Virus record (IMG/VR): IMGVR_UViG_2660238346_000013
DNA length: 8,053 nucleotides
Source: a virus
Taxonomy: Duplodnaviria > Heunggongvirae > Uroviricota > Caudoviricetes
Direction: 5' to 3' (one strand)
In this document: positions 1-3,000 of the stretch, piece by piece
How the letters are laid out: each line of letters opens with the position of its first letter
Numbering within the stretch: the first letter of the stretch is position 1
Program-made: the position numbers

Positions 1-3000
1 CTCCGATGGAAAGCTTCTGGGGAACGCTGAAAAATGAGAGCCTGAGCTACTATCGTTTTAATAACCGGGATGAAGCCATCTCAGTAATACGGGAATACAT
101 TGAGATTTTCTACAATCGTCAGCGTCGTCACTCTCGTCTGGGGAATATCTCCCCGGCAGCCTTCAGGGAAAAATATCATCAGATAGCTACTTAAAAAAAG
201 AACAAATGGTAGTGTCCGCTATTGCCAGTACACCTCACTCTGCTGATGTCATCAGTTACAGGCGCTTTCAGTTCAAGGCCATTTTTCATAGTCAACCTCA
301 ACAGAATTCGTTTATACTTTTCCATGTTCTCCCTTGCCTTATCCAAGGTCAGAAACACAAAACCCCGCTTGCAGCCAACAAACGGGGTTTTTACTTTTAT
401 TCACTTAGTTTTTGTCAGTTCGCAGGATTTCGTGTTATCCGTCCGTGTGAGCAAACCGCATTTTTCAGCAAAATATTCTGCTTATCTGTCAATTCCCCAG
501 CACGCCAGCGCGCTCTCCTGGTCACGCCGCGATACCTGCCCGTAACAGTTATTTGAGCGATTCCGACAGTCCCTGCCGCCGTCATATATCCATCGGCGGA
601 TTTCAGCACATGCACCTTTCCGGTCTCCGGCGTTCAGTTTCCGGTAAAACGTTGAGGTGAAGCATTTCGAAGGCCCGATGTTGTACGGACAGAATGACGC
701 GATGCCCGCTTTCTGCGGTTCAGTCAGTGGCAATTTGATGTTTTTCTCCACCCATGCCAGCGCCTTATCACGTTCAATGGCATTAACCTGAGCGCATTTT
801 TCCTTCGACAACTTCATGCCCGGGACGACAGGTTTGCCATCCACCATGATGGCACCACGGCAGATGGTCCAGATCCCCGCACCATCACGGTATGCCGTGG
901 TGTGGTTACCTTCTTTTTCGTCAAGAAACTGGTCGAGGATTTCAGGCGCAGAAGCACCTGTGGCAATCAGCGCCAGAACGGCTACCGATAAACCATAGTG
1001 GAGTTTCCTGCTCATCAGCTTACTCTCCCCGCGCAGCTTTGCGCCGGTCTTCTTTAATCTTGAAATACAGATTCGTCAGGTATGTCAGGAACCCCAGACA
1101 CAGGCTCCCCAAAACCCCGATAGCAGCCCACTGTGACGGAGTAACCTGATCCAACCACTGTAGAAACCAGTAACCCGCACTGCCCGCAGAAGTACCATAG
1201 GCTATGCCCGTTGATATTTTTTCCATCTGATACATATCCCCGCCCCGACAGACCTGTGCTACCGGAAATAAAAAAGGCCATCAGTGTTTTACTGATGGCC
1301 CTGCCCCGCCGTTACAGCATTGTGCCCGGTTCGGGTTGTGTGTCTGTCATATCCGTCACCGGTGACTCCGGCTGAATATCACCATTTTCCGTGGTGACAT
1401 CTTCCGCCTGTGGTTCCGGAAGCAGTTCCGGGGATGGTTCCGGCTGTGCACCAAGCAATTCATCCAGAATTGAATCCACTTCTGCATCAAGACGCTCTTC
1501 CAGATTCTGGCGGAGTTTTTGTTTCAGGACGCTTCTGACTTCTTCAGAGCGAATGACTTCCTTCACTGCCTCAGCAGTGACCAGTTGTTTTATATCTGTC
1601 ATGAGATTTTCTCGTTGAAAGGGGTTATTAAGAAGGTTGTTCCGGAATGAGTGGGGCTTCTGTTTTTGCTCCGGCTGACTGAGTGGCGCTGATTTTCTCA
1701 GCGGCCCTTTTGTCAATCTGTCTGCGCCAGAAGTCGCGTACTGCCCTGTATCCACCTGAAAGAAGATACAACACACAGACCACCGTACAGAAGTACAGCA
1801 TTAACTGGTTGATGAATGTCATGGTTTATTACCGTTACTGTTGACAATGAGAACTGTTTTCATTTAGAAATGATTGATGTCGAAAGCATCCTTTCGTTAG
1901 ATTCTCCATTGGGATTACCTCCGCCAGTCTCCATTCCTGTTGCTGGCGGTTTTTTTTCGTCTGTTATGCTGCTACGGCATTCACACCAACAGTAAGACTT
2001 TCAATCAGCACAGGGTAAGTTGCCGCATTTCCGGTAATATCCGTAATTGCCAGCGCGTTGGCCTCAAAGGCTGCATTCGTCCATCTGGTCAGCGTAAACG
2101 GTTTTCCTGCTGCATTATCAAGCACCGGCGTGACGTTCAGCGAGCCACCACCCGGGAAGCGGAAAGTCAGCGTGTGCCAGTCGTGATCGAACGGACCATA
2201 ACTACCAAGCCGCTGTGATGTGGTGTTTGCATGATACATCACATTGATGTTTGTTTTATCAGTCTGCAGATAGAAGGCCGCAATATAACCCTCCTCTGAT
2301 TCCGCTCCCGGCCATCCACTACCGCGCCAGTAAATACCCGCAGAATATTGATTTGCAGAAGCATTGAGAGATACATCATCGGGGATTTTAAAGCGCAGCG
2401 TGATTTCACCGCCGTTATCGAACAGCTCCTTCCCCTTACCGGCATCAATTGCGTGCGATACTTTCCAGGTCTTTTTCTGTGCAAGACCATTTTCTGGTTT
2501 TTCAAGACGAAGGGCTTTTTTACCTGAACCACTGTCACTGACCAGCGTGTTTTTGACATCTGTCAGCGTCCAGCCCTGCGAAGCCAGAGCGGCATTTTCC
2601 GCATTCACATCATAAGCCAGCACTGACTGTATCTTTGTCGGGACAACGGCTTCAGGCTGAGTATCGCCACTCTCCTGTGCTGGTTGCGATACGCCTCCGC
2701 CTGAAGAAACCGCGGCTTTTGTCACTTTCCCGGAAACAAAATCTGCCACTCTGCCCACATGCAGAAGAATGGCTGTTGCCAGACGGTCGGAAATAATTCC
2801 GCGACGCGCCCATGAACCAAAGTGGGTTTTACGATCGGATGTTGTCCAGCTCTTCGCATCCGTTCGTCCACCGGAACCATAATACCCGATAGCCGGAATA
2901 TCCGGGTCTTCTGACGGTTCATTGGTCCCGACTTTCTGACCATTGTCATCCATCATAAACGGCACAAAGAAGATATTTTTACCGGCTTTGGTTTTGTATG

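Follow-up and report, generated by a model that had tools for sequence, protein, structure and literature searches.

The 8,053-nt stretch of DNA analysed here in full (the window; IMG/VR virus record IMGVR_UViG_2660238346_000013) is the late-regulatory and lysis region of a lambdoid Escherichia coli prophage, in which every phage gene lies on the minus strand. Between the sialate esterase gene nanS-p and the holin gene, the plus strand very probably carries a discrete small RNA (sRNA) gene, which is antisense to the late transcript just upstream of a gene of the DUF1378 family. We regard it as probable that the interval as a whole combines an sRNA gene of the PasA/PasC/EcOnc32 type, known from other lambdoid prophages, with two late cargo genes and a conserved terminator in front of the holin gene. 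The sRNA unit consists of the following elements:

1841-1846, plus strand: -35 element TTGACA; relative to DUF1378, on the opposite strand and 19 nt upstream of its start codon
1865-1870, plus strand: -10 element TAGAAA after an 18-nt spacer, the usual final T missing
1877-1957, plus strand: predicted sRNA of about 81 nt, its 5′ end deduced from the promoter, with a start near 1876/1877
1881-1896, plus strand: 5′ stem-loop CGAAAG-CATC-CTTTCG, arms at 1881-1886 and 1891-1896
1903-1909, plus strand: CU-rich UCUCCAU motif within the loop of a second, weak stem-loop
1921-1957, plus strand: intrinsic terminator with an 8-bp GC-rich stem, a 13-nt loop and U8

The arms of this terminator, CCGCCAG(T) and (G)CTGGCGG (1921-1928 and 1942-1949; -12.8 kcal/mol), are followed by T8 at 1950-1957, and the terminator ends 6 nt short of the nanS-p stop codon; no U-tract follows the same hairpin when it is read on the late strand. 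A second UCUCCAU (1928-1934) sits in the terminator loop. The promoter pattern TTGACA-N17/18-TARAAA matched once in the 8-kb window, with 0.01 matches expected, and the 81-nt RNA was predicted to fold at -20.1 kcal/mol, with a z-score of only -2.0. An earlier, sequence-only reading of the window had described both plus-strand hairpins correctly (CGAAAG/CTTTCG, and 1921-1957 with its T8) and had placed the TTGACA at 1851-1856; the element really lies ten bases to the left. The plus-strand RNA of about 70 nt which that reading proposed, antisense to the region upstream of the membrane-protein gene, is very probably an sRNA indeed, with a length of about 81 nt, rather than 70, as given by the 18-nt spacer. 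Neither end of the unit was reported by the scanners used. The terminator was missed because its 13-nt loop exceeds the scanner's loop limit of 8 nt, and the promoter scanner, which demands a T at the last -10 position, made no call on 1841-1870 because TAGAAA lacks this final T.

PasA and PasC of E2348/69, an enteropathogenic E. coli (EPEC) strain, have been validated by northern blotting and are Hfq-dependent (Pearl Mizrahi et al. 2021, PMC8550237), and their loci are flanked by a sialate esterase gene and a holin gene (Zhu, Shabalina and Storz, bioRxiv 10.64898/2026.05.13.724894). In the loci fetched here, both sRNAs are oriented opposite to the late genes, which places them in the slot and on the strand of the window unit (1841-1957, plus strand), and PasC, like the window unit, has its 3′ end next to the nanS-p stop codon. 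The sequence TTGACA-N18-CAGAAA precedes both PasA and PasC, and the published RNA-seq 5′ end of PasA (NC_011601 743499; PMC8550237) falls 6 nt past CAGAAA. The window unit thus shares with them a promoter of the form TTGACA-N18-nAGAAA, a terminator core GCCAG..CTGGC with a U-tract, a stem-loop and poly-U end, and a similar length (77-85 nt, compared with about 81 nt predicted for the window). Global alignment of the window unit with PasA and PasC gave 59-61% identity (z = 4.6-5.3). EcOnc51 of enterohaemorrhagic E. coli (EHEC) Sakai occupies the same slot in prophage Sp12, and EcOnc51 and EcOnc52 are grouped with PasA and PasC as Hfq-dependent prophage sRNAs of EPEC and EHEC. The published seed of PasA, GCCAGCACCU, is not kept in the window, which has CGCCAGUCUCC at this site, with GCCAG alone in common; also, the PasA and PasC loci lack the DUF1378 and DUF826 genes that accompany the window unit.

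Two tandem antisense sRNA-like units could be observed after nanS-p in E2348/69 prophage PP2, Sakai Sp12 and phage 434 (L003 2455-2580, minus strand; L006 5072-5197, plus strand). The first unit of the pair is PasA; the second is equipped with a separate TTGACA and a separate terminator, the latter abutting the stop codon of nanS-p. The minor 236-nt form of PasA that has been published ends at the terminator of the second unit.

A closer relative of the window unit was found in E2348/69 prophage PP4 and, with identical sequence, in Sakai prophage Sp3:

L144 1280-1371, minus strand (NC_002695.2, about 901579-901670): EcOnc32, Sakai Sp3
L140 3614-3705, minus strand (NC_011601 1060613-1060704): the same RNA, E2348/69 PP4

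EcOnc32 and the RNA counted as the coding sequence (CDS) 'E2348C_1013' in the EPEC data are one and the same. Its layout comprises TTGACAAT, 17-18 nt, TAGAAA, a 5′ hairpin, UUUCUCCA, the terminator GCCAGCGCAGA..UCUGCGCUGGC, U6 and a remnant nanS-p 3′ end. EcOnc32 occupies the slot of the window unit and is likewise antisense to the late genes, with the pre-holin terminator on one side and the 3′ end of nanS-p, of which PP4 and Sp3 keep a remnant, on the other. At this syntenic position it has a promoter of the same form, a 5′ hairpin, UUCUCCA, a GCCAGCG..CGCTGGC terminator and a U-tail. With the window unit it shares 61% identity (z = 7.1), and with a type located upstream of DUF1378 (L056) 75%; this type matches R1, a covariance model of the window family, at 5e-5 and is an intermediate linking the two. 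R1 scored 96.6 bits on the window unit, by construction. The 5′ hairpin and terminator-loop sequences of EcOnc32 differ from those of the window unit, and the targets of the two RNAs therefore probably differ; PP4 and Sp3 also lack DUF1378 and DUF826.

EcOnc32 has been characterised by northern blotting, by Hfq cross-linking and analysis of cDNA (CRAC) and by ligation-and-sequencing analysis of RNA interactions (RIL-seq), whereas the window RNA is known here from its sequence alone. An Hfq-CRAC peak was present in five of five data sets and had the second-highest peak area among orphan sites, and a northern band of about 112 nt was obtained (Tree et al. 2014, PMC4104026); the reverse complement of the published northern probe matches the Sp3 unit. 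In EPEC, 'E2348C_1013' showed an RNA-seq baseMean of 2,064 and a log2 fold change of -2.9 in the hfq mutant (padj 1e-23), and in RIL-seq it always stood on the sRNA side of the chimeras, as RNA2, with a 3′ end at 1060613, one base beyond the U-tract (PMC8550237). Its chimeras involved the rpoS start region (537), the entC 5′ untranslated region (UTR; 263), an island intergenic region (72) and the dnaK 5′ UTR (28), and the column that we took as 'other fragments of RNA2' holds about 808,000 for 'E2348C_1013', compared with 47,395 for PasC (PMC8550237). Its absence from the list of new EPEC sRNAs is probably explained by the criteria in the legend of Table S6, since CDS and 5′ UTRs make up only four of the eight partners. 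EcOnc32 is unnamed as an sRNA in the EPEC paper, and no paper tying EcOnc32 or 'E2348C_1013' to the Pas sRNAs was found in the literature. Unrestricted RNAduplex runs of the sRNAs against the rpoS and entC regions returned long, meaningless duplexes with z near 0; the pairings read by hand, of EcOnc32 UUCUCCAC with entC GUGGAGGA and of CCGUUCUC with rpoS GAGAACGG, are offered as hypotheses.

Conservation of the unit was followed in 131 viral loci, collected by means of two anchors, DUF1378 and the C-terminus of nanS-p. In the viral loci sampled, nanS-p was followed in constant order by the antisense unit, DUF1378, DUF826, holin and lysozyme, and all DUF1378-anchored viral loci with enough upstream sequence (78 of 78) contained the antisense unit, which was conserved in more than 110 viral contigs. 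The full promoter pattern had exactly one match, always at the same position, in each of 114 related loci, and no match in the representative genomes of 185,579 species. A pattern search yielded 35 distinct versions of the unit, measuring 107-122 nt from the -35 element to the end of the U-tract. All of them showed TTGAC(A/T), a -10 element TA(A/G)AAA or a close variant at a distance of 17-18 nt, a T-run and the terminator arms CCGCCAG/CTGGCGG, with a single variant ending in CTGGCG. Outside these versions, loci L045-L047 have a weaker -35 element, TTGAAA. Over divergent types the predicted RNA measures 70-95 nt. The terminator stem CCGCCAG/CTGGCGG was unchanged in 16 representative sequences, the eighth pair is variable (C-G, U-G or U-A), and (U)UCUCCA was kept in nearly all types, EcOnc32 included. 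In L101, L048 and L056 the 5′ hairpin is swapped for an unrelated hairpin-forming sequence (CACCG..CGGTG in L101; GATATGTGTTACATATC in L056 and in EcOnc32), while (U)UCUCCA and the terminator are retained. Compared with L108, the commonest other type, the 141-nt intergenic region of the window was 82-84% identical, level with the DUF1378 coding sequence, whereas holin third-codon positions were about 50% identical and the nanS-p C-terminus was 53% identical at the protein level. The 117-nt unit is conserved throughout and well above the synonymous-site level, not at its ends alone.

Among complete E. coli genomes the unit was found in 951 of 5,426, at 2,019 places, i.e. in about one genome in six and usually in two copies; it is also present in the classical Shiga toxin 2 (Stx2) phages 933W and Sp5. 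None of the 25 RefSeq records listed carries an annotation under the unit, and the window sRNA is thus an unannotated RNA, in those 25 records, of the PasA/PasC/EcOnc32 kind. Rfam 15 gave no match in 1236-1990 at E-values up to 1, the only matches of the window being copies of STnc100 elsewhere. No paper describing the window sRNA was found in the literature, nor did a full-text search with the terminator sequence return one. An antisense terminator could also be observed in L099 (2915-3000, minus strand), where a different gene follows nanS-p, yet CCCCCTCCG..CGGAGGGGG with T6 abuts the nanS-p stop codon; in sequence it resembles the STnc100 terminator.

Open reading frames (ORFs) that overlap the unit were rejected as genes. 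The frame of a 59-aa plus-strand ORF (1816-1995) is broken by A-run indels among close variants. A late-strand mini-ORF with GGAGG-N8-ATG (window 1835-1909, minus strand) comprises 24, 14 and 4 codons in three sequence types, and the frame of the 41-aa Orf24 of 933W (H0118 of VT2-Sakai; L002 3547-3672, minus strand), which lies wholly on the complement of the sRNA, is not conserved. Judged by these sequence comparisons, the mini-ORF and Orf24/H0118 are probably spurious.

Several observations weigh against an sRNA of the Pas kind. The -10 element is weak, its conserved final T is missing and the promoter scanner did not report it, and conservation of the -35 region could partly stem from the overlapping translation-initiation region of DUF1378. 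RNAalifold and covariation analysis recovered the invariant terminator only, as its stem is free of variation and the 5′ stems could not be aligned. In blastn the window unit had no match to PasA or PasC, and nhmmer matched only the terminator arms, at E-values of 0.4 or more; model R1 gave E-values of 0.02 for the second PP2 unit, 3.2 for PasC, 5.7 for PasA and only 0.027-0.11 for EcOnc32 at the syntenic position in PP4 and Sp3. By these sequence scores, homology of the window unit to the validated sRNAs is not statistically firm. For the copy in Sp5 of Sakai (NC_002695.2 1272086-1272171, minus strand; R1 93 bits), the table of Tree et al. lists no Hfq-CRAC peak, and this missing peak is the main evidence against strong expression of the window subtype.

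The same observations could be read to mean that no discrete sRNA exists, the hairpin with T8 being a backstop terminator that shields nanS-p from leftward read-through and the TTGACA being kept as part of the DUF1378 initiation region. The weak -10 element, which the promoter scanner passed over, the Sp5 copy without an Hfq peak and the stem without covariation would all agree with this, as would the phage 434 record, where the curators marked a 'terminator' only. Against a backstop stands a 117-nt unit whose conservation is well above the synonymous-site level over its full length, including the part between the two ends, and whose -35/-10 spacing and total length are kept across types with swapped inner modules. 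In addition, PasA, PasC and EcOnc32, for which 5′ ends have been mapped or northern bands obtained, are preceded by the same arrangement of promoter elements. We therefore consider a terminator without an sRNA unlikely and retain the discrete sRNA gene as the very probable explanation.

According to this preferred reading, the sRNA would be made from a Q-independent sigma-70 promoter (1841-1846, 1865-1870) by transcription converging with that of the late operon and would end at 1957, as a member of a modular set of sRNA genes, with PasA, PasC and EcOnc32, in the slot just downstream of nanS-p in lambdoid prophages. By analogy with these relatives, whose behaviour as sRNAs was established by experiment and from which we infer transcription, 5′ end, Hfq binding and seed of the window copy, the RNA would be made in the lysogen and be bound and stabilised by Hfq via the U-tail of its terminator. 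It would then act in trans, its two UCUCCAU loops pairing with the translation-initiation regions of mRNAs from the host and the prophage; UCUCCAU at 1903-1909, anti-Shine-Dalgarno in character, is a candidate seed.

A secondary effect in cis on the late transcript is possible because the RNA is fully complementary to this transcript between nanS-p and DUF1378, from -55 to -135 relative to the DUF1378 ATG. The complementarity leaves out the ribosome-binding site and the ORF of DUF1378, while the promoter of the unit overlaps the DUF1378 initiation region; pairing at an upstream standby site of the DUF1378 mRNA, as for tisB, may occur. In an extended version of this idea the sRNA would also serve as a safety catch in cis, pairing or colliding with transcription that arrives from nanS-p and so gating DUF1378 and DUF826 and, together with the pre-holin terminator, the lysis genes. 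We think this improbable; were it so, it would amount to toxin-antitoxin-like control of prophage lysis, built from a freely exchanged lambdoid sRNA module, and we give that no better chance.

The window sRNA is widespread and occurs in medically important phages; it does not represent a new principle. EcOnc32 is among the most abundant Hfq-bound RNAs in EHEC and EPEC, yet it is unnamed and bears a spurious CDS label in one data set. If the window RNA behaves alike, carrying Stx and related prophages would mean one more competitor for Hfq and possibly regulation of stress and iron genes; PasA, PasC, EcOnc32 and the window RNA would then make up a single modular family tied to a fixed locus of the phages, a view that bears on how the Pas sRNAs evolved.

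The remainder of the interval is occupied by two late genes and a terminator:

1628-1822, minus strand: DUF1378 gene, 64 aa (PF07125, 7e-36; phrog_494)
1312-1602, minus strand: DUF826 gene, 96 aa (PF05696, 8e-25; phrog_311)
1302-1266, minus strand: late-strand intrinsic terminator, directly upstream of the pinholin gene

Both ORFs are present as the sequence-only reading had described them, the first with a transmembrane helix and a charged tail and the second with an acidic C-terminus. They belong to already-known DUF families, which they match over the full domain with 122.6 bits (DUF1378) and 87.2 bits (DUF826) at a gathering threshold of 25 each; phrog_494 and phrog_311 are both listed as of unknown function. 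As had also been anticipated, Stx phages contain equivalents as uncharacterised hypotheticals, in the same gene order: Orf25/L0106 of 933W, H0119/H0120 of VT2-Sakai and ECs_1210/ECs_1211 of Sakai. ECs1211 is reportedly listed in a transcriptome study. In every locus sampled the two genes were adjacent and located between nanS-p and the pinholin gene. Median pairwise ratios of nonsynonymous to synonymous substitution (dN/dS) were 0.19 for DUF1378 and 0.37 for DUF826, compared with 0.06 for the holin; both are real genes, since these values show purifying selection. A search of 5.8 billion proteins yielded, for both families, organism-bearing source names that were all Escherichia or Shigella, with 115 clusters for DUF1378, and an exhaustive HMMER search of 1.84 billion representative proteins yielded 51 relatives of DUF826 at E-values up to 0.001; no DUF826 relative was found in the scan of one genome per species (185,579 species). 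Searches of PADLOC, NCBIfam and PDB sequences returned no match for either protein. The presence of the two genes between nanS-p and the holin gene S has been remarked upon, with no function given (PMC10462455), and no literature on the function of either protein was found: another 'DUF1378' paper proved to contain a typing error for DUF1738, and no paper on L0106 was found.

In the 64-aa protein, a single hydrophobic helix at the N-terminus (Kyte-Doolittle maximum 2.0, residues 3-21) precedes a basic tail; the pI is 9.2. Structure prediction, which had been suggested as a check on both proteins, gave with AlphaFold a single long helix for DUF1378 (residues 2-50), of which the first 25 residues or so are hydrophobic and are followed by a basic stretch; the basic helical tail is probably cytoplasmic. 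The DUF826 protein has a pI of 4.05 and a net charge of about -15, its C-terminal 44 residues comprising 11 D/E, no K/R and 9 Pro. AlphaFold predicted helices as far as residue 49, followed by disorder in the tail, with a predicted local distance difference test (pLDDT) score below 50 at residues 59-91. Both models consist of isolated helices and disorder (predicted template modelling score, pTM, 0.34-0.36). DUF826 homologues are 75-96 aa long; a helical domain of about 52 aa at the N-terminus is conserved among them, and the tail, its least conserved part, is variable, acidic and Pro-rich and ends in a conserved M-M-L/M. In the RefSeq annotation of the closest genome (L001 2575-2979, minus strand; window 1312-1776, minus strand), DUF826 is given as 134 aa from an upstream GTG that overlaps DUF1378 in another frame. 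Starts giving 134 or 154 aa were rejected, the RefSeq call being an artefact, since the ATG at 1602 marks the beginning of both the Pfam domain and the conserved sequence. The family phrog_8301 (139 aa) seems to be built from over-extended or fused DUF826 calls.

The sRNA gene and the neighbouring membrane-protein gene had been likened in the sequence-only reading to a type I toxin-antitoxin or superinfection-exclusion module, in which DUF1378 would be a membrane toxin and the plus-strand RNA an antitoxin acting on the 5′ untranslated part of its mRNA. The tisB/istR-1, zorO/orzO and shoB/ohsC loci do resemble the window in having an sRNA gene that is divergent from, and just upstream of, a small membrane protein gene. 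DUF1378 is small and passes the membrane once, the RNA is fully complementary to the region upstream of its ATG and overlaps its initiation region with the promoter, and the 78 viral loci mentioned above all have both. The proposal nevertheless fails on co-inheritance, because the sRNA occurs without DUF1378, in equivalent units of E2348/69 PP2, PP5 and PP4, Sakai Sp3 and Sp12 and phage 434, and DUF1378 occurs without the sRNA, in a distant DUF1378/DUF826 pair in L098 (the context of this pair offered no lysis cassette for comparison). DUF1378 differs from the toxins of the three known loci also in that no promoter of its own was found, a consensus scan of 900-2300 on the minus strand having revealed no sigma-70-like site; it lies in a Q-dependent late operon and is always followed by DUF826, so that DUF826, and not the RNA alone, is its constant partner. 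Moreover, the RNA reaches neither the ribosome-binding site nor the ORF of DUF1378, and its relatives act in trans on core genes via Hfq. For a type I toxin, a length of 64 aa and a long charged tail are unusual. We consider such a module very unlikely here.

The strong acidity of DUF826 (pI 4.05, charge about -15) had suggested a DNA mimic with an anti-restriction or anti-defence function. This we regard as highly improbable, since the acidic tail is predicted to be disordered, unlike the folded acidic array of the Ocr/ArdA type, the tail is the least conserved part in proteins whose total length varies from 75 to 96 aa, and the conserved part is a plain helical domain. The position of the gene points to late expression with the lysis genes, and the database searches given above, PADLOC among them, found no counterpart. 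The sequence alone gives no ground for a toxin-antitoxin or an anti-restriction claim.

DUF1378 and DUF826 are probably partners. As late-operon cargo, DUF1378 would be a single-pass inner-membrane protein with a basic cytoplasmic tail and DUF826 a soluble acidic helical protein; their pairing, their opposite charges and their membrane and soluble nature lead us to guess that they act together at the inner membrane late in infection, as an envelope or lysis-timing accessory, a function we propose with low confidence. A more specific proposal is that the pair, rather than being generic cargo, adjusts lysis timing by the P21-type pinholin, for instance as an antiholin-like pair of a membrane and a cytoplasmic protein. 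Its constant location directly upstream of a class II pinholin and a signal-anchor-release (SAR) endolysin, the opposite charges of a membrane and a soluble protein and the late-operon position of both genes would fit. Closely related pinholin cassettes, however, function without the pair in phage 434, PP2, Sp10 and Sp12, a terminator separates the pair from S, and no homology of either protein to any lysis protein was found in Pfam, PHROG and PDB searches. We consider this more specific role at the pinholin doubtful and retain the view that both are late cargo genes.

The terminator between the pair and the holin gene has a minus-strand stem at 1302-1274 with 11-12 pairs (-18.9 kcal/mol), followed by TTTTATTT. 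The strong terminator that the sequence-only reading had placed at 1266-1300 was thus confirmed, while its assignment to the two-gene module as the module's own did not stand: the element belongs to the pre-holin region because prophages without the module share it. It aligns with the pre-holin sequence of Sp10, Sp12 and PP2, all of which lack DUF1378 and DUF826, and with that of Sp5, and the curated phage 434 record marks the equivalent element as 'terminator'. Its likely role is to keep transcription that is unmodified by Q away from the lysis genes.

The order of genes in the window is NinB, NinE, YbcO, RusA, NinH, Q, three STnc100-type RNAs, nanS-p, the interval described above, holin and lysozyme, with the following coordinates:

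5993-6478, minus strand: Q
1964-3967, minus strand: nanS-p (sialate esterase, SASA esterase)
1020-1235, minus strand: P21-type class II holin (pinholin)
482-1015, minus strand: phage lysozyme (SAR endolysin)

The closest complete genome (L001) is that of a uropathogenic E. coli (UPEC) isolate, with 99.7% identity across window 238-8053. Positions 1-237 of the window correspond to the 3′ end of an IS3-family transposase gene (rve_2, 1e-14), which stands in place of the prophage sequence 3′ of the endolysin gene. The spanin genes Rz and Rz1 are present in the closest genome and absent from the window because the IS3-family fragment replaces the sequence downstream of the endolysin; lysis by this prophage may consequently be defective.

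Three STnc100-type (PasD-related) units are arranged in tandem downstream of Q (4169-4378, 4443-4618 and 4654-4845, all on the minus strand), at the site where Stx phages have tRNAs and stx. The outer two scored 138 and 145 bits and the middle one, which is degenerate, 30 bits against a gathering score of 47; a tRNA scan of the window found none. Between these units and Q lies a 197-aa ORF (5265-5858, minus strand) with a weak DnaD_N match (7e-8) and a Cys-rich, basic C-terminus, which is a plain hypothetical in the annotation of the closest genome. The N-terminus of the holin, MYQMEK, offers possible starts at Met1 and Met4, as in the pinholin/antiholin pair of phage 21, and the N-terminus of the lysozyme (482-1015, minus strand) is hydrophobic and of the signal-anchor-release type.

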